In this document: positions 4,450 to 31,800 of the stretch, piece by piece
Layout of the letters: each line of letters starts with the position of its first letter
Numbering within the stretch: the stretch's first letter is position 1
DNA from: Nostoc punctiforme PCC 73102
GTDB taxonomy: Bacteria > Cyanobacteriota > Cyanobacteriia > Cyanobacteriales > Nostocaceae
Assembly: GCF_000020025.1 (NCBI RefSeq)
Contig: NC_010631.1
Coordinates: forward strand, 300,001 to 332,000
Length of the DNA stretch: 32,000 bases
Direction: 5' to 3'
Notes under the pieces: generated by a model
Databases searched by the model: none
What the model saw: the letters and a program-made list of their open reading frames with translations, nothing else
Told to the model about the DNA's origin: nothing
Made by a program: the position numbers and the translations under genes

Positions 4450-5241
4450 TTAGTTAACAGTTTTTAGATTTCTCAGTTTGCGCTTTAGTATAAAGCTGCT
4501 ACCAAAAATACCAAAGGCTATTGTGCTGGCGATTGAAGAAGGTTCGGGGACATTTACCGGATTGCTACCGAGTGCAATATTACCAGGGCCTGTGATGGTA
4601 TTGGTAAAAGTGCCAAAACTGTTATTGCTATTGTCAAATCCAGTAGTGACTAAAAAATATTGATTATTAGCAGTTAAGCTTAAGCTACTAAAACTAGATG
4701 TGCCTTCATCGGGAAAAGGATCATTTCCGTTGAGTAAATTATCTAGTGGAGTAATTGGATTGAAGCTGTTCTGGTACAAGAACTGGATGCCCAGGAAATT
4801 TTGAGAACCTGCAACATTATAAGAGCCAGTAGTATTAACAGAGAAAGGCTGACTGTAATAAGAAACGGTGGTGCCATTACTAGAAAGTGACGTGGGCGGG
4901 TTAGTACCACCTTCAAACCCTTCCGTTTGAGGACGGTTAAAAGTTGGTGCGTTTGTTGTATCACCCGAATATGAAATAGTGGATGCCTTAGATGGCAGGA
5001 TAACACTTATAGATAGAGCGATGGCTACGCCCGCCGCAGACGCAATAAAAATTGAACATCTTAGCGATTTTTGCCAAAAATTAAATGAATACTGACTCAA
5101 ACTCTGAAGCTTGGGCGTTTGTGAAAATTTAGTAGAGTGATGAAATAGATTGTTTTCTGAGACAATGGATTCTTCAATTGCTTGTGACATATAGTTATTC
5201 AAGGTTTTTTTACAAAACTGAGTGATGTTTGTCTTTCGCAC
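4450..5241 (-). CDS. PEP-CTERM sorting-domain protein
   Basis: The C-terminus reads VPEPSS, then the hydrophobic stretch IASTIAFGIFGSSFIL, then a basic KRKLR tail, which is the classic PEP-CTERM anchor. A signal/anchor-like segment IFIASAAGVAIALSISVIL is present. The true start is uncertain because the N-terminal ~60 aa precede the hydrophobic segment. The gene lies 6 bp downstream of the transporter gene. Confidence 0.7.
   Translation of the reverse strand: MRKTNITQFCKKTLNNYMSQAIEESIVSENNLFHHSTKFSQTPKLQSLSQYSFNFWQKSLRCSIFIASAAGVAIALSISVILPSKASTISYSGDTTNAPTFNRPQTEGFEGGTNPPTSLSSNGTTVSYYSQPFSVNTTGSYNVAGSQNFLGIQFLYQNSFNPITPLDNLLNGNDPFPDEGTSSFSSLSLTANNQYFLVTTGFDNSNNSFGTFTNTITGPGNIALGSNPVNVPEPSSIASTIAFGIFGSSFILKRKLRNLKTVN
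5018..5044 (-). repeat. short dispersed repeat copy (GCGTCTGCGGCGGGCGTAGCCATCGC on the minus strand), inside a CDS
   Basis: Near-identical core CTGCGGCGGGC-N3-GCC-N3-GC is shared with 19038-19067 (+) and 25291-25320 (-). Here it encodes SAAGVAIA of the PEP-CTERM protein. Confidence 0.55.
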
Positions 5242-5247
5242 TTTTAT

Positions 5248-6714
5248 CTAGTTCCAGGGTTGTCCCAGAAAAGCTTGTGTAGTGATACCTAAGCCAATTA
5301 GGGTAATGCATAAGGCACTTGCTACAGGTAACATCTTTATCCTGGGTATTTGAAATGGCAAATGCTCAAATCGATCTTTGGCGTAGACCAGTATTAAGCC
5401 AATTCCAGTTAGCACTGCTGCTAGACCTAAGCTAAAGGCAGATACTAAGGCTAATCCAAAGCCAATTCGCCCCATTGCGATCGCACTTAGCAATACTACT
5501 AAGGCTGAAGGACAAGGTAACAAGCCACCCGATATTCCCAGCGCCAGTAGGCTAGACCACTTCATGGAAATTAGATCGCTGTGAGGCGGTAGATGCTCAT
5601 GGTGATGATGGTGATGACTGTGTTGGTGAGTATGTACATGGTTTTCATGCTCATGGTCGTGTGAATGACCTTGTACTCGACTAATGAACAAATTTAAACC
5701 AATTCCAATTACTACCAGACCAGAGATTACACTTAGCCAAGGGTATAATTGTTCAGTCAGCACAAATTGAGACGTGCCAAGTGTTACCAGCCCTAAAACA
5801 AATATGCTAGCTGTATGAGTAACCGTCACAGTCAACCCCAGGAATAGTGCGTGTTGGGGCTTGCTACGGGAACCCACCAAATAAGCGCCAACTATCGTTT
5901 TTCCATGACCAGGGGACAGGGCGTGTAAACCACCCCATAAAAAGGCGATCGCTAGAGCAATTAAGATAGTAAAGAAATTATGATTTTCCTGAGTAATTAA
6001 GCTGGTGAAAACATCATTGCTTCTTCCTGTCAAAGCATTATCTAAGCGACTGGATGATTTAACAAGCAGTGGAGGCGCTTGTTCACTTGATGTCAGAGAC
6101 AGATTGAGGTTAAAAGAGATCCGACGCTGGTCGAGAGGACTGCTAAGTAACTCATTCGGGTAATCTCTCAAACGGTTGGTGATACTCGAAGAAGTGAAAT
6201 CACCTTGAATAGGAACACCATTTGCAGCAACAGTAATTTCACGCCAGCCCAAGCGCTGTGGATAAAACTTATCTTCAAATGTTAACTGATTCGCGTTTAC
6301 TAACGCCCTTGCCCCTTGAAAGTTACAACTCAGCCGCAGTGTAGATAATCCTCCTACACCTGGAGGGAATTCAACTGTTGATTTTATTAAAGACAGTGCT
6401 AAAGGCTGTTTATCGATCAACAATTCTAGGTGTGAGTTGACTTGCTGACATTTCTGAGCGGGGTATTGAACCGTTTCTACAGGTTCAGCTTTGCGATCCC
6501 GATTAGTATCTAAGTGATTAATCTCCTGAAAAGCCGGAATCTCTGCCATGTCTAGAACATAATCAATCCCCACACCATCGGTTGCTACCTGCACTCCTGC
6601 GTAGTGATTGATCGTAAAATTGCCTAAAGGATGGGCATCCGCCTTCGGCATCCAAAATAAACATATTGCGATGATTGCGGTATTCCAGGCCAAGTAATGT
6701 AGCAGCTTTTTCAT
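5248..6714 (-). CDS. NicO/RcnA-like nickel/cobalt transporter with N-terminal periplasmic domain and His-rich loop
   Basis: 488 aa with a signal peptide (MKKLLHYLAWNTAIIAICLFWMPKADA) and a ~230-aa soluble domain. A multi-TM region follows, carrying HALSPGHGKT and the loop GHSHDHEHENHVHTHQHSHHHHHHEH. The start overlaps the upstream stop in an ATGA (6711-6714). Confidence 0.8.
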   Translation of the reverse strand: MKKLLHYLAWNTAIIAICLFWMPKADAHPLGNFTINHYAGVQVATDGVGIDYVLDMAEIPAFQEINHLDTNRDRKAEPVETVQYPAQKCQQVNSHLELLIDKQPLALSLIKSTVEFPPGVGGLSTLRLSCNFQGARALVNANQLTFEDKFYPQRLGWREITVAANGVPIQGDFTSSSITNRLRDYPNELLSSPLDQRRISFNLNLSLTSSEQAPPLLVKSSSRLDNALTGRSNDVFTSLITQENHNFFTILIALAIAFLWGGLHALSPGHGKTIVGAYLVGSRSKPQHALFLGLTVTVTHTASIFVLGLVTLGTSQFVLTEQLYPWLSVISGLVVIGIGLNLFISRVQGHSHDHEHENHVHTHQHSHHHHHHEHLPPHSDLISMKWSSLLALGISGGLLPCPSALVVLLSAIAMGRIGFGLALVSAFSLGLAAVLTGIGLILVYAKDRFEHLPFQIPRIKMLPVASALCITLIGLGITTQAFLGQPWN

Positions 6715-8123
6715 AAAGAACTCCCTATAGCATTAGCAGTGGGAAAAGAGACAGAGGATACTAAGTTAGCCAAGACTTGACGAGCTTCATCAGCATACTT
6801 GTGATGAAATTGAGGATTGAGGCTAATAGCTTGAGTTAATCGCTTTATTGCTTCTTCACGCTTACCTAAGTGAAACGCAATCATGCCAGCATGAAATTGC
6901 AGCAAGGCATCCTCTGTTCCAAAACGAGTTGCCCGTTGTGCTGCCTTTTGCGCTTCTTCCCATTGCCCATTAGCCGCAGCTGCCCAAGCCAAGGTATCCT
7001 CTGCGTATACATCGTCTCGCACTGCTACTTCATTACGCGCAATTTGTAGCGCCTCTGGTAGATGGATTCCATGTTCGGTATAGTATATTGCCAAAACGCG
7101 ATCGTAGATTCCTTTAACCTTGCTCAGGTAAGCTACTAACCCAATTAAATCTTCAGTTTCGGCTGCACCTTTTTGGTCTCCCAAAGCTAGTTGAGCATCA
7201 GCCTTATACCCCAACGTTTCTACCAACGGCATCAGTTCTATACCTTGGTTTGCAATATTTAGAACATCCTGCCAGCGATGCTGTGCCGCATAGAGGCGGG
7301 CCAGCCCTGTAAACGCAGCTATATGCCGGGGAAAGAGGTCAAAGCTCTCCTGATATCGCTGCTCAGACAGGGCAAAATCTCCGGCTGCAAAAGCAAGATC
7401 CCCAGTCCGTACATGAAACCAAGCACGAGTTTCTGCGCTTGTGGTGTAGAAAGAGTCCATCTCCTGCATAGCCTCATCTAGCAGTTGCCGCGCTGAGGCT
7501 AGATTGCCAGTTAACTCTAAATAACGGGCGACAACTGCATTATGACCAGAGTTAGATTCTCCCTCAGCAAGGCTCTGCAAAAGTTGATGAGTTGTTTCAT
7601 AGTCGCCCAACTCCATCTGAATCGATGCCAAGAGTGAGACAATATTGGGATTATCAACAGGTGAATTATTTAATACTTCTAAAGCTGATCGAAACTGGTG
7701 TTGAGATAGTAAAGCTGATGCTAGCAGCATAGAGGAAACTTCATTATGGCGCGGCTGTAGTGCTAGGGATCTACGTGCTGCTTGTTCTGCTCGTAACACA
7801 TCATCTGTATCTGCCAGTTCTCGAAAACGCCTCAAATATTGATCGGCTAACAGACGTAAAAATATTGAGGAATCGGGAGATTGGGCAACTTTCTCCTCAT
7901 AGACGCTGATAATATGCGATCGCTGTAAATAATCGGGGAAGACTAAATCTGACGGCTTTTCTGGTAATATCTGCCTAGAATTAACAGTCAGCAGTTGCAC
8001 GGTAGAGGAATATGTGTCTAACTTACCATTGGTGTAGGCTAAACTTAGCGCTTGTGTATCAGAGGGTCTTAGTAAAACCAGTAGGCTAGTCAGCACTAAC
8101 ACCCATAGTATTCTTAGATGCAT
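6711..8123 (-). CDS. secreted tetratricopeptide-repeat (TPR) protein
   Basis: 470 aa with an N-terminal signal peptide (LVLTSLLVLLRPSDTQA). TPR-like helical units recur along the protein (e.g. ARRSLALQPRHNE, FDLFPRHIAAFTGLARLYAAQHRW, AIKRLTQAISLNPQFH). Confidence 0.8.
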   Translation of the reverse strand: MHLRILWVLVLTSLLVLLRPSDTQALSLAYTNGKLDTYSSTVQLLTVNSRQILPEKPSDLVFPDYLQRSHIISVYEEKVAQSPDSSIFLRLLADQYLRRFRELADTDDVLRAEQAARRSLALQPRHNEVSSMLLASALLSQHQFRSALEVLNNSPVDNPNIVSLLASIQMELGDYETTHQLLQSLAEGESNSGHNAVVARYLELTGNLASARQLLDEAMQEMDSFYTTSAETRAWFHVRTGDLAFAAGDFALSEQRYQESFDLFPRHIAAFTGLARLYAAQHRWQDVLNIANQGIELMPLVETLGYKADAQLALGDQKGAAETEDLIGLVAYLSKVKGIYDRVLAIYYTEHGIHLPEALQIARNEVAVRDDVYAEDTLAWAAAANGQWEEAQKAAQRATRFGTEDALLQFHAGMIAFHLGKREEAIKRLTQAISLNPQFHHKYADEARQVLANLVSSVSFPTANAIGSSL

Positions 8124-8128
8124 AAACC

Positions 8129-9403
8129 TTACAAAGGATTGCCTAAATAAGGGAAGGTAGGAAGAAAGTTGGCATTATTAGGCCCAACATTATCGCTAGT
8201 CAGCCCCGGAATAATACCAGTAGAAATGCCTGTAACTGCATCACCAAAGACAACAGATGCTGTTACATCGATTACGTCATCTTTTGGTCTTCTACCACCA
8301 AAATTGTTGCCTAACTGAGTTCCAAAATAACTACCGCTAGGTTTAGAAAGGTCAGCCTGGATAACATCAGGAATCGCTACCGAGATAACTGCATCAGCTA
8401 TACCTTGAGGTCTACCGATCGCTTTAACAAAGGCTTGAATAAATTGTGATTGATTGCTAGCGTCTTGCGTTGGTGTCTGAAGATTACTATTATTATGAGC
8501 TTTAAAGTCCATAAAAAGTTCATTCAGGGCTGGAACTGCTAACCGCTCAATCTGAGCAAAATGATCCTTTCTGAGTCTAGGAGTTTTAACACTAGTTGTC
8601 ATCCAAGCACCAATCTTGCCACTACCAAGCAGTTTCCTGGGTAGCTCGACAATAATTGAGTGGACATTGAATGGGGCTAGGGTGTCTTTTGCTTGTCCAG
8701 GTGGTCTAAAGGTAAGAACTGTGAAAGGAGGACTGGGATTAGGCTGAAGGCTATAGTTCCGATCCGGGATGATTTTAAAGAACTGTTCCAAATCGAAAAA
8801 GAACGGGTCTTTGCGTGTCCCAACAAAGAACTTCATACCGTTAGATGCAGAGAATGTTTGGTTGAGTTGCCCTGTCCAAGTTACGGGAAGCAAAGCTGAC
8901 TCTGTTCCTACTGTGGTTGGACGATATGGGCCTCGGACTGTGACAGTTTGCTGTGATCCTTTACCATTTACATTAAATTGGAGTACAACATCTTCAATAC
9001 TGTCGCCAGTGTTATCAATCTTGAACTGATAAAGAACATTTGGATCGAATGGTCTTTTTTCACCAGAAACAATGAGAGGGTCGAAATCCATGACTAAGAC
9101 AACATTTTTGGGGTTTGTCGGACTCTCAAATACAAACAAATCAGTGAGATCCGCAGCTGTCAACTTAGTGGCAAGAAAAGTTGTGTCTTGGTGATCTGAA
9201 GCCAAAGCTTGAGGGGTGGCATAGATTAAGACTACGAGCAAGATAGCGACAAATGCCACTAGAGGACGAAAAAACCGAGTAGCTCCAGTCCAAGATAGCG
9301 ATCGCTTGATGGAAAGAAACCCCATATTTTGGACTGCTTTATCTATGGGGAACCTGCCTTCAGTTGGTATAAAAGAGGTAATACTCCAAGCATTTATTCT
9401 CAT
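8129..9403 (-). CDS. DUF4331-family secreted protein
   Basis: After a signal peptide ending QALA, the protein reads SDHQDT...DLTDLFVFESP...FDPNVLYQFKIDNTGDSIEDVVLQF. This matches the N-terminal DUF4331 pattern (SSHREAP...D.TD.Y.F...FDP...Y...IDN.GD..ED). An alternative start is the ATG at 9325 (MGFLSIKRS). The ATG at 9403 has the better SD (AAGAAGGG). Confidence 0.7.
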   Translation of the reverse strand: MRINAWSITSFIPTEGRFPIDKAVQNMGFLSIKRSLSWTGATRFFRPLVAFVAILLVVLIYATPQALASDHQDTTFLATKLTAADLTDLFVFESPTNPKNVVLVMDFDPLIVSGEKRPFDPNVLYQFKIDNTGDSIEDVVLQFNVNGKGSQQTVTVRGPYRPTTVGTESALLPVTWTGQLNQTFSASNGMKFFVGTRKDPFFFDLEQFFKIIPDRNYSLQPNPSPPFTVLTFRPPGQAKDTLAPFNVHSIIVELPRKLLGSGKIGAWMTTSVKTPRLRKDHFAQIERLAVPALNELFMDFKAHNNSNLQTPTQDASNQSQFIQAFVKAIGRPQGIADAVISVAIPDVIQADLSKPSGSYFGTQLGNNFGGRRPKDDVIDVTASVVFGDAVTGISTGIIPGLTSDNVGPNNANFLPTFPYLGNPL

Positions 9404-17407: not shown

Positions 17408-19030
17408 ATGGAACTCTCAAATCTCCTCTCCACGCTCGATTCACAAATCCCGATCGCCGCAGTTGATGTCCTGTCCCCCGATGAAGCAACTATCATTCAG
17501 TGGTTAACTACAGAGGCATCGAGCAAGCTCTCATGTCCAGTGTTCTTCTGGAATCTGGGAGTATCAACCTTAGAGCAATGCCTGATTGCGGCAGATGGTG
17601 GACTGGTGTTTAAGCCAGTTGCAGAGTACAAAAGACCTCCACAGGCTGACCCACTGCTATTTGTATTTGACTACATTGCTAACTTTAGCGGTCATGGTGT
17701 ATTTATCCTTGGAGATATTCACCCTTTCATTGCTAAGAATTCACTCCAATTGAGTTGGGAGATTTTATCCAAAGTTAAAAACCTTTACCACAGGTTAAAA
17801 CCCACAGATAAACGCATCGTACTCTTAGGACAGAACATACAATTACACGAATCTCTAATCAGATTGATTCCTTATTGTGAAGTCCCTTTACCTAGTATTG
17901 ACCAAATACTACTTCATATCACTTCTTATTTGCATGACCTACAACAGTCAGCTAGGGAGCAAGAATTAAGTTTTACTGTTACGCTTGAAAATGCTGAATT
18001 TGAAACTCTTTCTCGTGCAGCGCTGGGTTTAACCCTGGAGGAGATTAGTGATTTTCTTCGCTTAACAGTCAAAGAAAACTTAACTAATGATGGTGTCGTC
18101 GTTGACGCTGATTTTATCCCCAAAGCCGTCGAGTACAAAACTCGGCTACTGTCTCAAATGGGTATCGAGTTGGGTAAGCCAGCTACCATTCCTTTTGGCG
18201 GTTTGGATCTACTGCGCGAGTGGCTGATGAGGCGGCGGCGACTATTCACACAAGAGGCGCGAAGTCTTAGCTTACCGCAACCCAAAGGGTTGTTACTTGC
18301 AGGGCCTCCAGGTACGGGTAAAACGAGTGTCGCTAAGAACATCGCTAATATTCTCAATTTGCCATTACTCCAGCTAGACATTGCTTCCCTTTTGGGTAGT
18401 CTGGTCGGTGAGTCTGAGGGGAATGTCAGACGGGCTTTGAAAACTGCCGAGGCGATCGCACCCTGCATCTTATGGGTAGACGAGATAGAAAAAGCACTTT
18501 CGGGAACTGGTGACACGAGTGGAGTCTCACAGAGGATTCTGGGCAATATTCTTACGTTTATGTCGGAATCAACTAGTGGGGTGTTTGTCGTGGCAACTTG
18601 CAATGACCCCTCTGCGTTACCGTCTGAACTCAAAAGGAAAGGACGTTTTGATGAAAATTTCTTTGTTGATCTTCCCACAGAACCAGAACGAGTCCAGATT
18701 CTAGGGATTCATCTGCAACGTTTTGGCATTCACCTGGAATCGGAGTACCTCGAAGCGATCGCAGCTTCCACCGCGAAATTCTCCGGCGCAGAACTGGAAA
18801 CCCTTGCTTCAGAAGCGGCACTGCTGGCATTCGATGAGGATAGACCGCAGCAGGTCACGCTTGCTGACCTCGAAACCTGTCGTCAAACCATTACCCCGCT
18901 TGCCATCCAGGATGCGGCGGCTGTAGAGCGTATGCAAGCGTGGGCATCCACCGCGCGACGGGCTAGTAGTCCCGCACAAGCGGCGAAAACTCAATCTCTC
19001 AGGACTGCTAAGTTCAGAAACATGAACTGA
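17408..19030 (+). CDS. classical AAA+ ATPase with a degenerate N-terminal AAA-like domain
   Basis: Walker A GPPGTGKT (aa 299-306), Walker B CILWVDEIE, and second region of homology VVATCNDPSALPSELKRKGRFD. The N-terminal ~260 aa lack a P-loop but have a Walker-B-like VFILGDIHPF and a lid-like LSRAALGLTLEEISDFL. Confidence 0.9.
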   Translation: MELSNLLSTLDSQIPIAAVDVLSPDEATIIQWLTTEASSKLSCPVFFWNLGVSTLEQCLIAADGGLVFKPVAEYKRPPQADPLLFVFDYIANFSGHGVFILGDIHPFIAKNSLQLSWEILSKVKNLYHRLKPTDKRIVLLGQNIQLHESLIRLIPYCEVPLPSIDQILLHITSYLHDLQQSAREQELSFTVTLENAEFETLSRAALGLTLEEISDFLRLTVKENLTNDGVVVDADFIPKAVEYKTRLLSQMGIELGKPATIPFGGLDLLREWLMRRRRLFTQEARSLSLPQPKGLLLAGPPGTGKTSVAKNIANILNLPLLQLDIASLLGSLVGESEGNVRRALKTAEAIAPCILWVDEIEKALSGTGDTSGVSQRILGNILTFMSESTSGVFVVATCNDPSALPSELKRKGRFDENFFVDLPTEPERVQILGIHLQRFGIHLESEYLEAIAASTAKFSGAELETLASEAALLAFDEDRPQQVTLADLETCRQTITPLAIQDAAAVERMQAWASTARRASSPAQAAKTQSLRTAKFRNMN

Positions 19031-21983: not shown

Positions 21984-24900
21984 ATGGCGAATATCATTGG
22001 AACCAACGGTAACGATACTCTAGTAGGCAGTTACGAAGCGGACACGATTAATGGAGAAGCAGGTAACGATACCATCACAGGTAACGAAGGTGATGACACC
22101 CTAACTGGTGGTGGTGGCAAAGATCAGTTTGTTTACAACTATTACACCGGAATTGATATCATCACGGATTTTGGCGGTATAGGCAAAGGCGTAAATCCCT
22201 CGGCAGGAGTCATCGCCGAAGTGGATACACTACAATTCCAAGGTGCTGCCTTGACTGACCGAAATATGCTGCTGACGCAGAATGGAAAGAATCTGGAAAT
22301 CACATTTGAAAATGTGCTTGATTCCAAAGTCATCCTGGAAAACTTTGCCCTGGAAAACCTGGAAAACCTGAGCAAATCTACCGGAGCCAGTGTAGACTTG
22401 GGCAATATAGAGTTTGATGGGCAAACTAGCATCACCGACAGCTTTGATGTTTTCAATGCCAACTCCACCCAAAGCACTATCTTCAACAAGAACACTGTTA
22501 CCTTCCTTAACGACCTCTCCAATAATGTTAGTGGCTTTGACAACTCAGATGATGTGATCAATGGTCAAGGTGGAAATGACCGCATTGACGGCTTGAGTGG
22601 CGACGACATACTGAGGGGTGGTGCAGGGAATGATACTCTTATTGGTGGTGCAGGGAATGATACTCTCATTGGTTATCAAGGCAATAATGCACTCATTGGT
22701 GACATTGGTGAAGACTATTTGAATGTTGATACTTCAACAGGCGATAACACTCTCAATGGTGGCATTGGTGACGATACTTTAAATGCTAGGGGAACAACAG
22801 GCAATAATTCCCTTTCTGGGGGCGATGGCAATGATTATCTTTCCACCTCTTCTTTTCCTATTTACAGCGGATACAGCTATATTGCCTCTTCAAGCAATAA
22901 CACCCTTGACGGTGGTGCTGGTAACGATACATTGAATGCTGAGTCTCCATCCGGCGATAACTTACTCTCTGGAGGCGATGGCAATGATTATCTCTCTACC
23001 TCTGGTACTAAAAGTGATAATGGGCAGCTTAATTTTACCTCAGAGGGTAATAACACCCTCGATGGTGGTGCTGGTGACGATCGCTTGTATGCTGATATTT
23101 CAACGGGTAATAACTTACTGTCTGGAGGCGATGGCAATGATACTCTCTCTACCTCTGGCACTTACACAAGAAACTCTTTTATCGTACCATCCTCTGGCAA
23201 TAACACGCTCAATGGCGGCGCTGGTGACGATTACTTGTATGCTAGCGCTTCAACGGGCAGTAACTTTTTCTCTGGGGGCGATGGCAATGATTCTTTCTCT
23301 CTAAGCACCATATCTTCAGATGGTTCCCCCTCTAACTCTTATTTAGTGACTCAAACGGTAGACGGAGGTAAGGGTGACGATTTGTTATCTTTCAATTTGT
23401 TACCTTTTCATGACAGCGACAGCAATGTTGCTGGAGGGATCATAACGACATTCAATCCAACTACAAACAAGGGAACAATTACTGCTGGTACGTATGGGGT
23501 TAATTACAAGAATATCGAAAAATTAAATATCTCAGGTACAGCCGACGATGACTTGATTTTGGGGAGCAATGGAAACGATACACTCTCCACAGGCAATGGT
23601 GGCAAAGATACGATAGATGGGGGTAAGGGTGACGATGTAATATCTATTGATTACAGTAATGCTACAAGCAAAATCATAACAACATTCAATGCCACTACTA
23701 ATACTGGCTTAATTACCGCAGGTACTTATCAGATTAGTTACAAGAATATTGAACGATTAAATATCACAGGTACAGCCTACGATGACAACATTTTGGGCAA
23801 CAATGGCAATGATACGCTCTCTACAGGCAGTGGTGGCAATGATACGATCAATGGCGGTCAAGGCGACGATATACTGTCAGTTGATTACTACACTAATACA
23901 ACAGGTATTACAACGACATACAATACCACTACTAATGCTGGAGTAATTACAGCAGGCAGTAATCGGGTTAGTTACAAGAATATCGAACGATTAGATATCT
24001 CTGGCACAGTCTCCGATGACTATATTATAGGCAACAATGGCAACGATACGCTTTCCGGGGGCTATGACGGTAATGATACGATTATTGGCGGTGCAGGAAA
24101 TGATGTCGTGATAGGTGGGAAGGGTAATGACATTTTAACTGGTGGTGTCGGCAATGATAAATTTGTTTACGATCTTTTAGAGAGCAACTATGATACTGGT
24201 ACTGATATAATCACAGATTTCGGTGGCATTGGTAAAGATTCAAATCCCTCACAAGCGGTAATTGCCTCCCTAGACACTTTGGAATTTATAGACAACAGTG
24301 GCTTCCGTCTATTTAGCGCTCAAAATCTGCAATTAACTCAAAATGGTAACAATTTAGAAATTACCTTTGAAGATTTATTTAATAGCAGTAATAGCAAAGT
24401 CATTCTCCAAAATTTCCAACTAGAAAACCTCGATGGTGAGAATATTCTATTTCCTGGACAAACCACCATCACCAACAGTATTGATGTGTTTGATGCTAAT
24501 TCCACTCAAACTAGCCTGTTGAACAAAAACACTGTTACCTTCCTCAATGACCTCAACAACAACATTACGGGTTTTGACAATTCCAATGATGTGGTGAATG
24601 GTCAAGGGGGTGACGATATCATCAACGGCTTAAGTGGTAACGATCTTTTGAGAGGTAATGCGGGAAATGATACTCTCATTGGTGGTGCGGGAAATGATAC
24701 CCTTTACGGTGGTGCTGGCAATGATCTCCTCTATGGTGGCGCTGGCAGTGATATTCTCACGGGTGACAACGGTAACGATATCTTTGCTTTTGCTGCTGGG
24801 GAAGGTACTGATACGATTACTGATTTCACTAAAAATAATGATTTGATTGGACTGTATGGTGGTTTGAGCTTTGGGCAATTAAGTTTCTCAGGTAACAATA

Positions 24901-24989
24901 TCCTGGTGACTTCTACGAATGAGATTTTGGCAACGCTGACTGGCATTAATACTACGACGCTGACTGCTGTTAATTTCGTCACGCTTTAA
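21984..24989 (+). CDS. RTX-type calcium-binding repeat protein (1001 aa)
   Basis: Dozens of GGxGxDxL/I nonapeptides (GGAGNDTLIGGAGNDTL and similar), several layers of internal duplication, and a C-terminal uncleaved secretion-signal-like tail (ILATLTGINTTTLTAVNFVTL). Confidence 0.9.
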   Translation: MANIIGTNGNDTLVGSYEADTINGEAGNDTITGNEGDDTLTGGGGKDQFVYNYYTGIDIITDFGGIGKGVNPSAGVIAEVDTLQFQGAALTDRNMLLTQNGKNLEITFENVLDSKVILENFALENLENLSKSTGASVDLGNIEFDGQTSITDSFDVFNANSTQSTIFNKNTVTFLNDLSNNVSGFDNSDDVINGQGGNDRIDGLSGDDILRGGAGNDTLIGGAGNDTLIGYQGNNALIGDIGEDYLNVDTSTGDNTLNGGIGDDTLNARGTTGNNSLSGGDGNDYLSTSSFPIYSGYSYIASSSNNTLDGGAGNDTLNAESPSGDNLLSGGDGNDYLSTSGTKSDNGQLNFTSEGNNTLDGGAGDDRLYADISTGNNLLSGGDGNDTLSTSGTYTRNSFIVPSSGNNTLNGGAGDDYLYASASTGSNFFSGGDGNDSFSLSTISSDGSPSNSYLVTQTVDGGKGDDLLSFNLLPFHDSDSNVAGGIITTFNPTTNKGTITAGTYGVNYKNIEKLNISGTADDDLILGSNGNDTLSTGNGGKDTIDGGKGDDVISIDYSNATSKIITTFNATTNTGLITAGTYQISYKNIERLNITGTAYDDNILGNNGNDTLSTGSGGNDTINGGQGDDILSVDYYTNTTGITTTYNTTTNAGVITAGSNRVSYKNIERLDISGTVSDDYIIGNNGNDTLSGGYDGNDTIIGGAGNDVVIGGKGNDILTGGVGNDKFVYDLLESNYDTGTDIITDFGGIGKDSNPSQAVIASLDTLEFIDNSGFRLFSAQNLQLTQNGNNLEITFEDLFNSSNSKVILQNFQLENLDGENILFPGQTTITNSIDVFDANSTQTSLLNKNTVTFLNDLNNNITGFDNSNDVVNGQGGDDIINGLSGNDLLRGNAGNDTLIGGAGNDTLYGGAGNDLLYGGAGSDILTGDNGNDIFAFAAGEGTDTITDFTKNNDLIGLYGGLSFGQLSFSGNNILVTSTNEILATLTGINTTTLTAVNFVTL

Positions 24990-25251: not shown

Positions 25252-26304
25252 TCACGGGCATCCGGGCATTATCATAAATTCTTGTAGTTCTGCGATGGCT
25301 ATGCCCGCCGCAGGCATCGCAGAATTTAGAGATTTTTCATTTTGGGCGACGGACGCGGCGAAACTTTCACCCTCATGATCCGCTTTCATTTCTACACCCG
25401 AAACTGAATTTTCAGTCATCAACTCAGCAGAGGGGCAACTCGGTTCTATTTTCTGATCTGCGATCGCTGGAGTTGAAGAAAATTCATTTTCGGCAACGGG
25501 CGCGGCGGAATCAGTGCCTTCATGAGGGAATATCGCTTCAACGCCAGAGACTTGGTTCTCTGCCAACAGCGAAGCAGATTCACCCTGTACAGCTTCCACA
25601 AGCGCCAGCGATGTACAGTCATTCGCCGTAGGCGAGTCTTCCTCATTCTCTGACACGCCCTCGACAGTCTGAGGCGAAGCGCCCCCCAAGGGCGCGTGAG
25701 CCGTCTTCTCAACTTGCAAAATCTCATTTAGCGTGTCAGAGACACAGCTAACGAACTCTTCAAAAGAGTTCGTTAGCTGTTCCTGAATAGTTCGTGAGGG
25801 TTTTTGAAACCCTTGCTCTGACTGGTCTTTAGCTAAAATAGACGCTTTATACAAAGCACGTATTTCTTCAGAGCCAGCATCTATCTCTGAATCCCCAGCA
25901 TTTGGTTCTTGTTTTAGAGAATCTGGTTCTTGCTTTTCAGCATTAGCTTTCTCCCAAAATTCCTTCATCCGGCTACCATGCAAATTCTTCACCATCCAGC
26001 TAGCCGTTTCTCGGCCATCCTCTATGGACTTGTCGGGCTTGAAGATGAATAGCCCACTGTCGGAGAGAATTTTCTTCGCAGAGATAAAAGTAATGTAACC
26101 CATCGGAGTAGAAAGGGGCATCCACCGAGAACCATAAGGGTCAGCCGTCCAGCATTCCTGCCATAGCTGATTAACTGATGGTTTTTGCTGCGATGCCCAG
26201 AGCATATCTTCGATGGGGATAATCACATGAAGTCTTTTATATGGGGATTCCTTTTTACTAGCAGCAGCCTTTTTCGGTTTGGGACGAGTAATAGTTGCAG
26301 TCAT
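25252..26304 (-). CDS. hypothetical protein with basic N-terminus and acidic, internally repeated C-terminal half
   Basis: AGGAG lies 8 nt upstream of ATG 26304. There are two ~32-aa repeats (LLAENQVSGVEAIFPHEGTDSAAPVAENEFS and LMTENSVSGVEMKADHEGESFAASVAQNEKS). No family recognised. Confidence 0.6.
   Translation of the reverse strand: MTATITRPKPKKAAASKKESPYKRLHVIIPIEDMLWASQQKPSVNQLWQECWTADPYGSRWMPLSTPMGYITFISAKKILSDSGLFIFKPDKSIEDGRETASWMVKNLHGSRMKEFWEKANAEKQEPDSLKQEPNAGDSEIDAGSEEIRALYKASILAKDQSEQGFQKPSRTIQEQLTNSFEEFVSCVSDTLNEILQVEKTAHAPLGGASPQTVEGVSENEEDSPTANDCTSLALVEAVQGESASLLAENQVSGVEAIFPHEGTDSAAPVAENEFSSTPAIADQKIEPSCPSAELMTENSVSGVEMKADHEGESFAASVAQNEKSLNSAMPAAGIAIAELQEFMIMPGCP
25291..25320 (-). 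repeat. short dispersed repeat copy (GCGATGCCTGCGGCGGGCATAGCCATCGCA on the minus strand), inside a CDS
   Basis: Encodes MPAAGIAIA near the C-terminus of the 350-aa protein. Confidence 0.55.
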
Positions 26305-26426
26305 TGTACAATCTCCTGTTTATGTTGACGCACGGAATTTTCCCTACAGCGTTGTTTACCGCCTTCGGCATCGCAGGGTTTAGTTCGATATTTGTTCGTC
26401 TAAAAAGTTACCGATACACTGGAAAC

Positions 26427-27416
26427 CTATTGAGCTTGCCAGAATCGCAATTCATCTCGAAAGTACCTCTCAGTCTTCTTTGAGCGCTCTTTCCAACAAT
26501 CCCAGGCAACCAGGAACTCTTCGCCTAAATCCTCTACAACTTCACCCCTCTCGACATACAAAGTGCGGTATGGATCAGCGTGGGCAACGATAGAACCAAG
26601 CCCGATTGTGTCCGGTTGAGAGGATGTGTTCTGGAGAGCAGTAATTAAATCAGTCTCTTGGGTTGTTAATTCCGCCCAGTAGTCCTGTTTGATTACCTCA
26701 TACTCTTGCGCTACTGCCCAAAACTCTTGCCACATACACCCCGGTTTAACTAGCACTGCCCTAATGTCGCTAACTGCCTGGGGTAGCATTTCCAGTTGTT
26801 CGGCTCGGTAAGCAATCGCTTCAGGAGTCGGACTACTGCCCAGAATTATCGCTGCGGCTTCGAGCGCTTGAGTGCTGTTCATGGCACTGGCAAGGTTTTT
26901 CAGTGCCATACCCATCAAGCGCAGACATTCTTGGGCGTTCTCTTTGGGTGGTTCAGCAGCTAGCGATCGCAGATCAATGGTTTTCTCTAGGGCAAGTTTG
27001 ACCTGCTTGTTCAAAGCTTTAGTCGCTTGCTGGGTCATGGTATTTCCCCATTGTTGTGAAGGATGTTGCTTTACAGCGTTTTCCAAATCTTGAATACGCT
27101 GTCTAAGCTGTTGGTTCTCAGTCTCCAACTGCCGTAATGATTCCATCTCATCCAATCGCTGCTGCAATTGAACGTTTTGCTCCCTTTGCTGCTTGTACAG
27201 GTTTTGCAAGGATGAGATTTGCTCTTGTACCTGGGCTTCGGCTTTAGCTCCTGCTTCTGCCTGTAGCCCAACTCTCAATTCCTGGGAAAGTCGCTCTAGT
27301 TCCTGTTTATGGCGTTCTTCAATAGCAGCGATCGCTTCGGTATATTCTGGTGAATATTTACGCTCTCTGGTAAAGGGAACGCTGGGTGCATCTAAATCAG
27401 CATTGTTGATCAACAA
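26427..27416 (-). CDS. hypothetical coiled-coil protein
   Basis: 329-aa ORF with a TTG start in the track. A Q/E/L-rich heptad-like segment runs over aa ~30-115 (QELERLSQELR...QNVQLQQRLDEMESLRQLETENQQLRQRIQDLENAV). Confidence 0.55.
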   Translation of the reverse strand: MLINNADLDAPSVPFTRERKYSPEYTEAIAAIEERHKQELERLSQELRVGLQAEAGAKAEAQVQEQISSLQNLYKQQREQNVQLQQRLDEMESLRQLETENQQLRQRIQDLENAVKQHPSQQWGNTMTQQATKALNKQVKLALEKTIDLRSLAAEPPKENAQECLRLMGMALKNLASAMNSTQALEAAAIILGSSPTPEAIAYRAEQLEMLPQAVSDIRAVLVKPGCMWQEFWAVAQEYEVIKQDYWAELTTQETDLITALQNTSSQPDTIGLGSIVAHADPYRTLYVERGEVVEDLGEEFLVAWDCWKERSKKTERYFRDELRFWQAQ

Positions 27417-27728: not shown

Positions 27729-27890
27729 ATGATGCAGATTAGTATCACAGACGACCTGAAGAAACGCTTTCATGCTGCTTGTGCTTTGCGTGGGCTGAAG
27801 ATGAGTCATGTCGTAGTGGAGATGATTGAGCAGTGGCTGAAAACTAATGAGGTACAATCATCTTCTCAAGTTTCAAGTGTAAAGCATTAA
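27729..27890 (+). CDS. untracked 53-aa ribbon-helix-helix (CopG/ParG/Arc-like) protein
   Basis: MMQISITDDLKKRFHAACALRGLKMSHVVVEMIEQWLKTNEVQSSSQVSSVKH shows a beta-strand (QISITDDL), helix, G-turn, helix pattern typical of RHH. It is below the track cutoff. Confidence 0.5.
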   Translation: MMQISITDDLKKRFHAACALRGLKMSHVVVEMIEQWLKTNEVQSSSQVSSVKH

Positions 27891-28040: not shown

Positions 28041-28376
28041 ATGAAAATTGAAATCCAAGGAAAAGATGCGGTAAAAGCTACAGAGGAACTGTTAGCGATT
28101 GAGGGAATAGAGGGAAGCTATCAGACAATTGATGAAGTAGAACGGGAAGGAACAGTAGCCACAATTGCAACCATAATTGGGATTGTCAGTGGCACATTTG
28201 CGATCGCAGAGAGTCTCCACAAGTGGAAGGAAAAATACCAAAAATCGCTATACGACCCAACAGGTGCAAGGATTGAGAAAGTTTTGATTGTCACACCTGA
28301 TAATCATCGGCTGCTGCTCAAAGACGCAACAGTAGAGCAAATCCAAGCGATTTTGGAAAAATCTAAGAAAAAATGA
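28041..28376 (+). CDS. small single-pass membrane protein coupled to the CHAT-NTPase gene
   Basis: 111 aa with a central hydrophobic helix (VATIATIIGIVSGTFAIA). Its stop overlaps the start of the next gene in an ATGA at 28373-28376. Confidence 0.55.
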   Translation: MKIEIQGKDAVKATEELLAIEGIEGSYQTIDEVEREGTVATIATIIGIVSGTFAIAESLHKWKEKYQKSLYDPTGARIEKVLIVTPDNHRLLLKDATVEQIQAILEKSKKK

Positions 28377-31270
28377 AAATTCTCCACATCAGCTTGAAAG
28401 AGCAAGGCAAGGATTACGTTTCTCTGCGTTATTTTTGGGATAATCCTTCAGATTATAAAGAACATAAACTGTCTGTAGCTGAAATCAAGCAGTTGGGTGA
28501 TAGAGCAGAAACCGACTACTATACCCGCTTACCTGTAGATTATTCTGTTACTGGGCAAGCACTGTACAATTGGCTAGACAAAAGCGATCGCCTCTTAGCT
28601 AATGCCCTCAATCACCCCCATCAACAAGGATTAGTAATAGCGATCGCCACAGACAAGGGACTAGCTCATCTGCCTTGGGAACTGCTGCATGATGGCAAGT
28701 GCTTTTTGGTAGAGAAAACGCCTCCGATTATTCCGGTGCGTTGGATGTCCAATGGTCAACCAATAGTTACGGCTGATAATCCTCAAAATCGCCCTCTCAA
28801 TGTGCTATTTATGGCGACCTCGCCCTTGGGGGTTGAACCGGAATTGGATTATGAAGCAGAGGAAGGGAAGATTTTGTCGGCAACCAAGCGCACTCCCGTT
28901 AATCTGAGAGTAGAAGAAAGTGGCTGTTTAAATGAATTGAGTTATGTGGTTCGGGAATATGAGGCAGGATATTTTGATGTTTTTCATTTAACAGGCCACG
29001 CTACTGTTAATGATAAAACGCCCTGCTTTCTGACTGAAGATGAATATGGCAATCGAGTTGATAGCAGTACGGACGCGATCGCAAAAGCCATGATGTTTCG
29101 TTTACCTGCGTTAGTCTTCCTATCTGGTTGCCGTACAGGTTATTCGTCAGAGGGTGCAGTTCCTTCGATGGCAGAAAAACTACTCAGCATGGGCGCAACT
29201 GCTGTTATTGGTTGGGGTGAGCGAGTCAAAGATACTGATGCGACTGCTGCTGCTGGTCAATTGTATTGGGAGTTATCACAAGGAGGAACGCTAACACAAG
29301 CGATGGCTTCTACTTATCAAAAATCAATTGAGCAAAAAGTACCAGATTGGCATAAATTACGGCTGTATGCAGCAAATACTTTACCAGGAACGTTAGTAAC
29401 TTCATTAAGAACTCCGAGACGCAAGCAACTACCTAAACCGTCTAATGAAGTGGAGTTCAGAGATGATGAAAAACGCTTAAGGGTGACAACAAGAGAGAAC
29501 TTTGTTGGTCGTCGCCGTCAATTACAAAACTGTTTGCGGACTCTAAAAACAGATTTTGACAAAGTAGGGATCTTAATTCACGGTATGGGAGGATGGGGAA
29601 AGAGTAGTATTGCCTCTCGACTATGGGATAGGTTGCCTGAACATGAAAAGATTCTTTGGTGGCAACAAATTGATGAATCTTATTTAATTAAAAAACTAAA
29701 AGATAAATTAATTAATCCAAAGCAACTAGAATTAATACCTGATCTAGAAAATAGCAAAATCCCACTTAAATCTCGATTAATTTACTTGTTTACTCAATTA
29801 GCAGAAACAGGAGAAAAATCATTTCTCTTAATTCTGGATGATTTTGAATGGAATCTTGAACCCCGTGAAGGGCAATATGTTCTTAAAGCTGAAGTAGCCC
29901 CGATTCTAGAAGCTTTAGTACAAGCAATCCAATCAACAGGAACTAATAATAGAATTATTATTACCTGTCGTTATGATTTTGATTCTGACCTATTAGATTT
30001 TTTATATAAACAAGGTCTAGAACCATTTAAAAAAGCTGAGTTAACTAAAAAAGTTAGTCGCTTAGAAAATTTTAGCTCTGGCAAAATACCTGATAATTTA
30101 CGGGAACGAGCGTTAAATTTAGCAGATGGTAATCCTCGGTTATTGGAATTCCTCAATGATGAATTAAGCAATATAGATGTAGAAACGAGATTAACAAAAC
30201 TAGAACAAAGTCCTGAATTATGGAAAGCTCAAATTATTTGGGAGGAGCTATATCGGCTAATTGATGAGTTACTACAAAAGATTCTTAGCTATTGCTTAGT
30301 TTATGATATTCCTGTTCCAATGGTAGTTTTAGAAGCGGCTTGTGATCAGCTTCCTAATTATCAACAGCAATTACAAACGGGGCTAAAACTGGGACTGATA
30401 GAAGTCAGCCCCGAACCAGACGAATCCAAACGGCTTTATCGAGTTTCACGTATTATTACCCACATCATCCCCACTATCCGCCTCCCTGAAGCACCAAAAG
30501 TTTATTCTCTCTACCAGAAAGCTCATGAAAGATTACATCAATTGTGGGGGAATAAAGAAAACGAAAGCCAAGAAAAATGGCAAGAGATTTTTCGATTGAA
30601 GTTCGCTAACAAAGAAAATCCTGAACGATTCAGGCAAGGCTTTGATGAGATGTTGGCAGTTCAATGTAATTTAGAAGCCGATAAAGCTTTTGAATCCGAA
30701 TTGAGGAAAGTTGCCGATGACTTGGTAAAGGATGGACTATGTACTCAGTTGGAAAATTATCTTCAGCAGAAACAATGGCAAAAGGCAGATGAAGAAACTG
30801 CTTGGATTTTTTACCAAGTCATGGTTAAAGAAAACTACGAAGATTGGGAGGAACTGCTGAAGGATTTCCCCTGTGAAACTCTCCGGGAAATCAATAGGCT
30901 CTGGCTTATTAGCAGTAACAATAGATTTGGCATCAGCATCCAAGCGGAAATTTACCAGAGTTTAGGTAGTCCAAGATATGACGTAGTACAATGGGATGCG
31001 TTTGGTGAGCGTATAGGTTGGAAACAATTAGATTGGTTGAGCAATAATGAGTTAATGGAAAAGTTCGGAAAAAATGGCCAAGGAGTGGAGAATTTGCCAT
31101 CGCCGCCAGGGGCACTACCCGTTAAAATTTATACTCGTATTATTCTTCCCAAATTACTGCGGGGGGGTTCGTTTGAGTTATGGAGGGCTAGGGAGTGGGG
31201 GGGGTTTAAAGTTAGTGAGAGTGAAGGATTAATATTTCTCTTCTCTCGCGCCAAGACTTGTAGAGTGTAA
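28373..31270 (+). CDS. CHAT protease-like / NB-ARC-type STAND NTPase / GUN4 domain fusion protein
   Basis: CHAT His/Cys dyad context: FHLTGHA (His209) and LVFLSGCRTG (Cys253), then GATAVIGWGERVKD. NTPase: FVGRRRQL, Walker A GMGGWGKSS (aa 404-412), Walker B FLLILDDFE, GxP-like ADGNPRLLEFL. C-terminal GUN4 pattern: QWQKADEETAW...DFPCETLREINRLWLISSNNRFGISIQAEIYQSLG...WDAFGERIGWK (aa ~790-925). Confidence 0.9.
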   Translation: MKILHISLKEQGKDYVSLRYFWDNPSDYKEHKLSVAEIKQLGDRAETDYYTRLPVDYSVTGQALYNWLDKSDRLLANALNHPHQQGLVIAIATDKGLAHLPWELLHDGKCFLVEKTPPIIPVRWMSNGQPIVTADNPQNRPLNVLFMATSPLGVEPELDYEAEEGKILSATKRTPVNLRVEESGCLNELSYVVREYEAGYFDVFHLTGHATVNDKTPCFLTEDEYGNRVDSSTDAIAKAMMFRLPALVFLSGCRTGYSSEGAVPSMAEKLLSMGATAVIGWGERVKDTDATAAAGQLYWELSQGGTLTQAMASTYQKSIEQKVPDWHKLRLYAANTLPGTLVTSLRTPRRKQLPKPSNEVEFRDDEKRLRVTTRENFVGRRRQLQNCLRTLKTDFDKVGILIHGMGGWGKSSIASRLWDRLPEHEKILWWQQIDESYLIKKLKDKLINPKQLELIPDLENSKIPLKSRLIYLFTQLAETGEKSFLLILDDFEWNLEPREGQYVLKAEVAPILEALVQAIQSTGTNNRIIITCRYDFDSDLLDFLYKQGLEPFKKAELTKKVSRLENFSSGKIPDNLRERALNLADGNPRLLEFLNDELSNIDVETRLTKLEQSPELWKAQIIWEELYRLIDELLQKILSYCLVYDIPVPMVVLEAACDQLPNYQQQLQTGLKLGLIEVSPEPDESKRLYRVSRIITHIIPTIRLPEAPKVYSLYQKAHERLHQLWGNKENESQEKWQEIFRLKFANKENPERFRQGFDEMLAVQCNLEADKAFESELRKVADDLVKDGLCTQLENYLQQKQWQKADEETAWIFYQVMVKENYEDWEELLKDFPCETLREINRLWLISSNNRFGISIQAEIYQSLGSPRYDVVQWDAFGERIGWKQLDWLSNNELMEKFGKNGQGVENLPSPPGALPVKIYTRIILPKLLRGGSFELWRAREWGGFKVSESEGLIFLFSRAKTCRV

Positions 31271-31331
31271 CATATAAAGCTTTCACAAGTTTGTAAATAT
31301 TTATCACACCCTTATTTCCCAATAATCAGCA

Positions 31332-31800
31332 TTACGCGAAACCGATACCTGGCACTGGTGGCTGATAACAATTTTCCTGAATAAATTTTGCTGCTACCTC
31401 ATGCACCTCAGTACTCTCGGTTACTTGCTGCTTGTCCCAAGGTAAACTCATCTGTCCTGGTGATGACTTCTTTGCTTTCGCACCCTTCACTACTGATGGC
31501 AAAAAGCTTCTCCCCCAGTGATTTCGCAACTCTTGTTTTGCCTGTGGCCGATATTTTGACAAAACCACCGATACTTCGCCGCACATGCATAATTAATTTG
31601 GGGCAGGTCTTCTGGTTGTTGAGGCTCAAGTAGGTGGTAAGTATGATTGCTTATGATACACAGAGCGTAAAGTTTAAATCCATATTTCTGTTGTGCTTTT
31701 TTGATGTCATAAAGCAGGACTTCATGCAATACTGTTCAGTTAAGGGAAAATAGGTGGTGGAGTCAAGGAGAATTAGTTCGCGTGTTGTTTACGAGAACAA
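31332..31800 (-). pseudogene. decayed IS200/IS605-type (RAYT-like) Y1 transposase
   Basis: Three overlapping minus-strand ORFs in different frames read like consecutive pieces of one Y1 transposase. An example is AQQKYGFKLYALCIISNHTYHLLEPQQPEDLPQI, which matches the family pattern YG..L.AYC.MSNHVHLL.EP. At least two frameshifts are needed to join them, and the N-terminus is interrupted by stops. Confidence 0.55.

Follow-up and report, generated by a model that had tools for sequence, protein, structure and literature searches.

We analysed a window of 32,000 nucleotides from Nostoc punctiforme PCC 73102 (contig NC_010631.1), and describe here two overlapping genes at its positions 28041-31270, which encode a small protein of 111 amino acids and a protease-NTPase-sensor fusion of 965 amino acids. 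It is likely that this pair constitutes a two-gene, proteolysis-gated cell-death system of the abortive-infection type, belonging to the EACC1-caspase class; as far as its sequence can tell, the pair is very probably a divergent member of that class. The domain identities, the intact catalytic motifs, the linkage of the two genes in both directions and across phyla, the homology of the small protein to the experimentally characterised EACC1 of Ktedonobacter racemifer (KrEACC1), and a hypervariable tail on the large protein were all established directly. The general design is already known. What is new is the recognition of an unannotated small open reading frame (ORF) as EACC1-like, and the identification of a hypervariable tail on a GUN4 scaffold, a GUN4-like sensor of this kind having not been studied previously.

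An earlier note on this DNA, made from the letters alone, had placed the two ORFs on the forward strand at 28041-28376 (111 aa) and 28373-31270 (965 aa), sharing a stop/start overlap, and this is how we found them; the overlapping ATGA (28373-28376) can be read directly in the sequence. The large protein is 100% identical to an NCBI entry of N. punctiforme named 'GUN4 domain-containing protein', and the 111-aa protein is likewise 100% identical to an N. punctiforme entry. Among the matches listed, more than 100 of 120 homologues of the large protein have the same architecture. The proposal that a CHAT protease, an NTPase and a GUN4 domain are joined in one 965-aa polypeptide was borne out, all three domains being above their Pfam cut-offs, and the strings that had been picked out as their signatures (GMGGWGKSS, LILDDFE, GNPRLLEFL, FPCETLREINRLWLISSNNRFGISIQ and FGERIGWK) are all present in the translation. 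Scans for promoters and terminators gave counts not above those in shuffled sequence.

The CHAT domain, a clan CD cysteine protease, occupies residues 60-324 (28550-29344) and scored 69 bits with Pfam CHAT (PF12770) against a cut-off of 24 (E 6e-19). Its catalytic dyad, His209 (codon 28997-28999) and Cys253 (codon 29129-29131), is indeed intact, as had been claimed, both residues being kept in all 74 relatives in an alignment of family members. The NTPase module spans residues 376-620 (29498-30232). Pfam AAA_16 matched residues 376-494 with 41.1 bits against a cut-off of 32.6 (E 3e-10); the Walker A motif GMGGWGKS lies at 29582-29605, the Walker B motif LILDDFE at 29828-29848, and GNPRLLE occupies residues 586-592. 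Lys410 and Ser411 of Walker A and Asp489 of Walker B were found in 74 of 74 family members, and D489/D490 together with G586, N587 and R589-E592 of GNPRLLE are invariant in the alignment. The AAA_16 score and these invariant motifs identify the module as a STAND NTPase. The narrower description of it as NB-ARC-like stands in part, since NB-ARC (PF00931) reached 21.1 bits, slightly under its gathering threshold of 23.5; some relatives exceed that threshold, and nSTAND1 was matched in relatives. The invariance of the catalytic His/Cys, Walker and GNPRLLE residues argues that protease and NTPase are both under purifying selection as active enzymes. A helical linker or arm without a Pfam match (residues 621-775; 30233-30697) follows the NTPase; it is conserved at 68-83% in close relatives and aligns weakly, at 24-34%, with relatives of the TPR type.

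The small ORF is among the most conserved parts of the locus, with 262 homologues and a mean column identity of 76%. Direct scans of it against Pfam, NCBIfam and PADLOC returned nothing, and a Pfam scan of 34 close relatives gave a single weak match, to EACC1. When 1.8 billion representatives were searched exhaustively with a profile, 192 relatives came up, some of which have an Ala/Arg/Gly-rich composition. When 59 diverse relatives were considered, 14 matched Pfam EACC1 (PF19953; best E 3.4e-4), which was by far the most frequent match; these alignments are collinear and nearly full-length, though all fall under the cut-off of 23.6 bits. We then compared the family with KrEACC1, whose sequence was taken from the supplementary table of Evans et al. 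The hidden Markov model (HMM) of the small-protein family scored 18.3 bits against KrEACC1 (E 1e-7 for a single target), the best of 1000 shuffles reaching 7.6 bits, and hhalign aligned 75 collinear columns (P 7.8e-4), with W62 opposite W73 and T41 opposite T52. KrEACC1 itself scores only 28.2 bits with Pfam EACC1, barely above the cut-off, which indicates that the Pfam model is narrow. On this comparison the cyanobacterial small proteins are most likely a divergent branch of EACC1 that the model misses. In addition to this detectable homology, the small protein has a central hydrophobic segment carrying small and Gly residues, and its gene stands directly 5' of a gene for a caspase-superfamily protease with a variable C-terminal part, as in the EACC1 class.

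Three members of the small-protein family, P0319 (368 aa), P0336 (224 aa) and P0383 (166 aa), carry long N-terminal extensions without a Pfam match before the EACC1-like domain, reminiscent of the EAD-EACC1 fusions that Kaur et al. mention; the extensions may be adaptor domains. The JGI/IMG name 'cysteine synthase' on four homologues of about 107 aa (P0007, P0041, P0062 and P0064) is an evident annotation error.

The view of the earlier note that no characterised example of this architecture existed has to be given up, as the EACC1-caspase systems of Kaur et al. (2020) and the EACC1-caspase-Avs12 pair of Evans et al. (2025) precede it. EACC1 was described as a constant 5' gene followed by a 3' gene that encodes an N-terminal caspase-superfamily protease and highly variable domains (Kaur et al. 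2020, eLife, PMC7159879). In their 'System 4', the hydrophobic segment in the middle of EACC1 is rich in small residues and has short alpha+beta flanks, and the 3' gene encodes a protease followed by variable domains, STAND NTPases and repeats among them; the small protein and the large gene of the window are alike in these respects. A constant core with a variable C-terminus, as observed here, is the very pattern by which the EACC1 system was defined and so supports our assignment. That system was described as widespread among actinobacteria and sporadic in proteobacteria, whereas the branch described here is cyanobacterial and lies under the Pfam EACC1 threshold. The two differ further in the protease, which here is a CHAT domain, in the NTPase, which is constant here instead of being one of many alternatives, and in the variable part, here a sensor of the GUN4-like, TPR or TRADD-N type.

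There is also an experimental precedent. KrEACC1 is a soluble, autoinhibited monomer, and a phage tail connector protein triggers KrAvs12, a caspase-like-Avs12 STAND protein, to cleave it into an N-fragment of 5.7 kDa and a C-fragment of 7.1 kDa, with Asp49 as the predicted site (Evans et al. 2025, bioRxiv 10.1101/2025.11.14.688446). In the same study, toxicity came from the C-fragment only and liposomes were permeabilised only by cleaved EACC1, while the N-fragment, modelled in a sheet with two C-terminal strands, was non-toxic. The gene order of EACC1-KrAvs12 is the one seen here, with a small EACC1 upstream of a fusion of a clan CD protease and a STAND NTPase. The small proteins also resemble each other in the aligned hydrophobic core and the Trp that follows it, and in a cleavage loop, predicted for the window protein, placed just before the hydrophobic segment; the autoinhibited fold may be common to both.

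The hydrophobic Gly/Thr-rich segment of the small protein (TVATIATIIGIVSGTFAIA, residues 38-56; 28152-28208) has a Kyte-Doolittle mean of 1.92 over its 19 residues. T41, I42, I45, I48 and G51 are invariant, and G47 is found in 31 of the 34 close relatives. The protein had been labelled a single-pass transmembrane (TM) protein on hydrophobicity alone, and we now read it differently, as a latent pore-forming pro-toxin. AlphaFold2 modelled it as a compact soluble alpha+beta domain (predicted local distance difference test, pLDDT, 83; predicted template modelling score 0.73) with strands at 2-7, 23-30, 40-48, 78-84 and 90-92 and helices at 10-18, 52-71 and 98-109. In this model the segment forms strand 40-48 and the start of helix 52-71 and is buried, rather than forming a single TM helix. 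The order of secondary structure elements fits that of the autoinhibited KrEACC1 monomer, with N-terminal strands and two C-terminal strands; searching the PDB for similar folds with this model yielded generic ferredoxin-like matches only. As AlphaFold2 places the segment inside a compact soluble fold, this TM-like stretch is more plausibly a latent, predicted membrane-active core than a constitutive anchor.

This bears on a role that Kaur et al. (2020) proposed for EACC1, that of a membrane sensor or anchor. Here the small protein would sit permanently in the membrane, sense its perturbation and activate CHAT, and self-processing would release the C-terminal domains. The TM-like score of the segment speaks for such a role, as does conservation here of the small-residue patch that Kaur et al. 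highlighted. Against these stand the compact soluble model with its buried segment, and the sole experimental study, in which EACC1 is soluble and cleaved and its C-fragment is toxic on its own (bioRxiv 10.1101/2025.11.14.688446); moreover, the C-terminal domains of the present family, GUN4-like or TPR, look like sensors and not like effectors awaiting release. We therefore regard a permanent membrane anchor as quite improbable. By analogy with KrEACC1, the 111-aa protein is most likely a soluble autoinhibited pro-toxin, a predicted latent pore-forming effector that serves as the substrate of the CHAT protease.

The putative cleavage region is the conserved loop E34-R35-E36-G37-T38 (28140-28154). 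In the hhalign alignment R35 stands opposite R46 of KrEACC1, and its predicted cleavage residue Asp49 stands opposite T38. Among the 59 diverse relatives, a basic residue (R or K) occupies position 35 in 58, and an acidic one (E or D) occupies position 36 in 40. The exact scissile bond within E34-T38 is inferred from these alignments. By computation, a cut at this loop would divide the protein into acidic and basic fragments of about 4 and 8 kDa, respectively; the former corresponds to the acidic N-terminal part of the protein (residues 1-36, pI of about 4.3; 28041-28148), which is predicted to be autoinhibitory.

On the pro-toxin reading the system would work as follows. The 965-aa protein would stay idle as a STAND NTPase until a trigger bound its C-terminal GUN4-like sensor, the hypervariable tail setting specificity. 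Binding would lead to NTP-dependent oligomerisation, by which the N-terminal CHAT protease domains would be brought together and activated. The protease would then cut the co-translated EACC1-like protein in its E34-T38 loop and so remove the acidic N-terminal autoinhibitory piece. The remaining basic, hydrophobic C-terminal fragment would self-assemble into membrane pores, and the cell would be killed or arrested. Cleavage, pore formation and activation by oligomerisation are taken over by inference from the Ktedonobacter system. The same logic is found in the bacterial gasdermin-protease and Pepco-protease modules, where a sensor-controlled protease frees a small pro-toxin that permeabilises the membrane, although their effector folds are unrelated to the EACC1-type effector of about 110 aa considered here. 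The arrangement of N-terminal effector, NTPase and C-terminal sensor is also that of Avs and other NLR-like STAND sensors of bacteria (Gao et al.; Nature 2026, PMC13581612), of which the Avs sensors bind phage proteins; the survey of STAND sensors in the latter paper does not mention GUN4, CHAT or EACC1. The general logic suggested by the earlier note, a STAND switch with an N-terminal clan CD protease and a C-terminal sensor that is a candidate for cell death or anti-phage defence, is supported.

Several observations weigh against assigning the pair to the EACC1-caspase class. Pfam EACC1 did not match the window protein at E<=10, and family consensus sequences reached only 16-17 bits, under the gathering threshold of 23.6 bits. 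The similarity to KrEACC1 is remote at 18 bits, and the HHalign probability is only 25%, with a single sequence as template. The Asp at the predicted cleavage site of KrEACC1 (Asp49) is not conserved, no Asp being present at the aligned position of the window protein. KrAvs12 combines a caspase-like domain (Cys152) with an Avs12 sensor for phage tail connector proteins, whereas the window protein has a CHAT domain (Cys253) and a GUN4-like sensor; CHAT being classified differently from that caspase-like domain, substrate specificity need not carry over. Finally, PADLOC does not class the pair as a known defence system. The program did report PD-T4-6 on the large protein, a hit that we rejected: it covers model positions 297-410 of 450 and lies on the GUN4-like region, and Pfam found no kinase domain. 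The match is probably explained by GUN4-kinase fusions being common on cyanobacterial plasmids; in the literature no role for GUN4 in PD-T4-6 is given.

We examined the linkage of the two genes in both directions. Fifty-seven loci around the small ORF were collected from species-representative genomes, nearly all of them labelled cyanobacterial, the rest being a few 'uncultured bacterium' bins and one Acetobacteraceae. A CHAT-NTPase gene lies downstream of the small ORF in nearly every one of these loci that has enough downstream sequence, and the junction is -4 nt (of the ATGA type) or +2 to +12 nt in most. In the reverse test, on an independent metagenome collection, the small ORF was present upstream and on the same strand in 57 of 66 testable large-gene loci. 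The suggestion that the small ORF may encode a partner or substrate of the fusion protein is supported by this conserved linkage. In most of the loci without the small ORF, the large protein has another N-terminal extension, for example a transglutaminase-like domain or a Peptidase_C14 caspase; the possibility that the two proteins had become fused in these loci was considered, and no such case was seen. As such alternative extensions occur where the small ORF is missing, the place ahead of CHAT acts as a slot for effectors. In one metagenome locus (L065, JAAUYD010271657.1, 1828-2160) the small ORF is found upstream of the large gene but runs on the other strand, pointing to a local inversion.

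Linkage extends beyond cyanobacteria, since a relative of the small ORF in a Streptosporangiaceae actinobacterium lies 18 nt upstream of a gene for a CHAT-AAA_16-TPR protein of 1839 aa. When this actinobacterial relative (P0367) was itself used to search for homologues, no sequence other than the query came back. Beside the constant small protein and CHAT-STAND core, the C-terminus is GUN4-like in the closer relatives, and elsewhere it is a TPR array (L038, L042, L049-L051), a TRADD-like-N domain (Trichodesmium, L024) or unrecognised. These loci show that EACC1 and a CHAT-STAND core with swappable sensors span cyanobacteria and actinobacteria, a point not made before.

The sensor of the window protein is a GUN4-like domain at residues 776-923 (30698-31141), ending in GALPVKIYTR. 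Pfam GUN4 (PF05419) matched residues 791-886 with 72.9 bits against a cut-off of 29.2 (E 3.7e-20). A profile of the C-terminal region matched five distinct GUN4 sequences in the PDB (12 entries; E 3e-17 to 2e-9), the AlphaFold2 core was predicted with pLDDT above 85, and the top 14 Foldseek matches in the PDB were all GUN4 structures. By profile and by fold, the domain belongs to the GUN4 family. The Pfam match is limited to profile positions 9-101 of 141; the core is conserved and the remainder divergent. Compared with GUN4/Ycf53, the Mg-chelatase cofactor (PDB 1Y6I, 1Z3X, 4YKB and 7E2R), the domain shares the helical fold and the motifs ADEET, LW..S...FG.S.Q and GxLP. It differs in lacking the C-terminal helices of the orthologues, in having a hypervariable tail and in being fused to a protease-NTPase.

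The ligand-binding features appear to be only half kept. The Synechocystis Gun4 sequence G205-H-L-P-L-L-N211-Q-L-R214 corresponds to G-A-L-P-V-K-I919-Y-T-R922 in the window protein, which thus reads V-K-I-Y-T-R in place of the LxNxLR of GUN4 orthologues. Asn211, which is essential for bilin binding and is typically lost in GUN4 paralogues (PMC10156173), has no equivalent in any of 74 relatives and is Ile919 here. The equivalent of Arg214 of GUN4/Ycf53 is retained as Arg922, and is Arg in 42 and Lys in 12 of the 74 relatives; the corresponding Arabidopsis residue, R211, was found experimentally to be important in porphyrin binding (PMC8967248). In these residues the domain resembles the 'paralogue' class, for which no bilin binding is known. 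Fusions of cyanobacterial GUN4 domains to caspases, kinases, trypsin and TIR had already been noted (Kaur et al. 2020, PMC7159879). The GUN4-like domains of plasmids are confined to cyanobacteria and are joined to many conflict-type partners, fusions to kinases being common.

The tail is the fastest-evolving part of the 965-aa protein. A hypervariable cassette, interrupted by the GxLPxLxxTR motif, covers residues 887-952 (31031-31228). Between the window protein and its 11 closest relatives, the CHAT domain is 79-92% identical, compared with 12-52% for residues 887-911 and 7-28% for residues 924-952, and tail length differs as well; the tail has a pLDDT below 50. At the very C-terminus, a semi-conserved LFSR motif and the stop codon occupy 31229-31270, and its Leu and Arg are nearly invariant in an alignment of 20 sequences. 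At the DNA level, identity to five relatives is about 70-95% along both genes and drops to 35-61% over 31041-31270, with 11% in one window of the relative L011. Past the stop codon it returns to 66-72% in four of the five (34% in L011), so that over 31041-31400 the last 230 nt or so of the large gene are less conserved than the non-coding DNA beyond them. Candidates for this conserved stretch are a regulatory element, a small RNA and a recombination boundary. We considered and set aside hypermutation of the tail by a diversity-generating retroelement, since neither the 32-kb window nor the loci of the five relatives (up to 6 kb on each side of the small ORF) yielded a copy of the tail resembling a template repeat, a search in which reverse transcriptase was not specifically sought.

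In an arms race, a specificity determinant would be expected to look like this, hypervariable within sharp limits and set on a conserved scaffold, and a pocket for an invariant metabolite would not; the cassette is a likely specificity determinant on this pattern of variation. The point matters for the idea, raised in the earlier note, that the module senses tetrapyrroles. In that case the GUN4-like domain would bind a porphyrin or bilin, fire when free tetrapyrrole rises or changes, and act through the same protease and pore; photo-oxidative stress or the rewiring of pigment metabolism by a cyanophage could provide the setting. The confirmed GUN4 fold and the retained Arg (R or K in 54 of 74 relatives) are consistent with it, tetrapyrrole-dependent allostery of GUN4 fusions was proposed by Kaur et al., and the organisms in which plasmid GUN4-like domains occur are makers of such pigments. 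However, Asn211 is missing throughout, the Pfam match is partial, and the region that should close the pocket is modelled with low confidence and is hypervariable in both sequence and length, which fits poorly with a single, unchanging small ligand. In sister systems the small protein and the CHAT-STAND core are the same, and protein-binding TPR arrays or TRADD-N stand in place of GUN4. The fold that had suggested tetrapyrrole sensing is thus confirmed, and of the ligand-binding residues the window protein retains the Arg and lacks the Asn; we consider a tetrapyrrole or bilin trigger unlikely. Because of the hypervariable cassette and the TPR arrays of the sister systems, a trigger derived from an invader, a product of a phage or other element and probably a protein, is favoured over a tetrapyrrole.

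A more tentative possibility, which we rate as doubtful, is that the GUN4-like domain represents an unrecognised type of STAND sensor, in which an ancient pigment-binding fold provides the scaffold and the hypervariable cassette replaces the lid of the porphyrin pocket. Such a sensor may read cyanophage proteins, or it may keep a tetrapyrrole or bilin, with the tail tuning which pigment state counts as 'infected'. If the pigment-tuned version were true, the cell would detect the manipulation of pigment metabolism by a cyanophage and answer with EACC1 pore formation.

The module probably resides on a large plasmid of N. punctiforme, and several close relatives carry plasmid annotation. In Nostoc flagelliforme CCNUN1, both copies of the module are interrupted by insertion sequences (IS) while the small ORF is intact in both (L061, NZ_CP024791.1, 6449-7050; L062, NZ_CP024793.1, 5449-7691). 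In one copy an IS630 leaves a CHAT stub of 89 aa, and in the other the CHAT gene ends at 636 aa beside a transposase; this shows ongoing decay or turnover on plasmids. In some genomes the module occurs in tandem or in several nearby copies. A second CHAT match lies about 5 kb downstream in L026 (CAVUSO010000001.1, 6001-12312), and Tolypothrix sp. PCC 7910 has two paralogues of the small protein (P0009 and P0024) with locus tags eight genes apart.

It would also be conceivable that the pair is not antiviral at all, and that the same machinery, set off by endogenous stress, serves a multicellular cyanobacterium as a switch in development or programmed cell death. EACC1-caspase systems are enriched in multicellular bacteria (Kaur et al. 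2020, PMC7159879), and EACC1-protease modules are also found fused to DnaK-like chaperones, suggesting stress inputs (bioRxiv 10.1101/2025.11.14.688446). Set against this, the plasmid location, the IS-mediated decay in N. flagelliforme, the patchy multi-copy distribution and the hypervariable sensor are signatures of conflict systems rather than of core genes of development, and we find a purely endogenous switch improbable.

The surroundings of the module in the window were inspected as well. A ribbon-helix-helix protein of 53 aa (ParG, RelB or 56B-like) is encoded at 27729-27890 (+), 150 nt upstream of the small ORF, and is annotated as 'plasmid partition protein ParG' in N. flagelliforme. 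It was rejected as a third component, a counterpart upstream of the small ORF being found in 0 of the 57 loci; its position next to the module is common only to the N. flagelliforme copies. Just downstream, an ORF at 31490-31729 (-) contains 'ISNHTYHLL', which by eye resembles motifs of IS200/IS605 or REP-associated tyrosine transposases (HUH), and is possibly a transposase remnant. At 25252-27416 (-), between an RTX-like gene and the module, are two ORFs without family matches, one of 350 aa and one of 329 aa that has many coiled-coil-like Q/E repeats; homologues in the loci L002 and L003 lie on the opposite strand, about 1.6-2.1 kb downstream of the large gene (about 5 kb downstream of the small ORF). 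The RTX-like gene (21984-24989, +) encodes a protein of 1001 aa made up almost entirely of GGxGxD-type (RTX/haemolysin-like) calcium-binding repeats in internally duplicated blocks, and in N. flagelliforme a 'calcium-binding protein' (L061, 204-2381) is likewise annotated, about 4 kb upstream of the related segment.

Further away, a second and unrelated STAND-like protein of 726 aa (1860-4040, +) has an N-terminal AAA_16/ATPase_2 P-loop domain and 600 C-terminal residues without a Pfam match. Four genes at 4450-9403 (-), encoding a DUF4331 protein (424 aa), a TPR protein (470 aa), a membrane protein with NicO/DsbD_2 matches (488 aa) and a protein of 263 aa without a Pfam match, look like a metal-handling operon. 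A classical AAA+ ATPase of 540 aa (17408-19030, +; PF00004 and AAA_lid_3) has an uncharacterised N-terminal region of 290 residues.

These findings provide a testable mechanism for a large cyanobacterial gene family whose members are annotated as 'GUN4 domain-containing', 'CHAT domain-containing' or 'hypothetical protein'. In this mechanism a protease would license a pore-forming pro-toxin, and its steps are largely predictable from the characterised homologue. The experimentally defined EACC1 class would thereby be widened to a divergent cyanobacterial branch. To our knowledge, very few defence triggers have been identified in bloom-forming and symbiotic filamentous cyanobacteria. The hypervariable cassette may offer a tractable handle on the triggers of immunity and cell death in such organisms, Nostoc, Microcystis and Trichodesmium among them.

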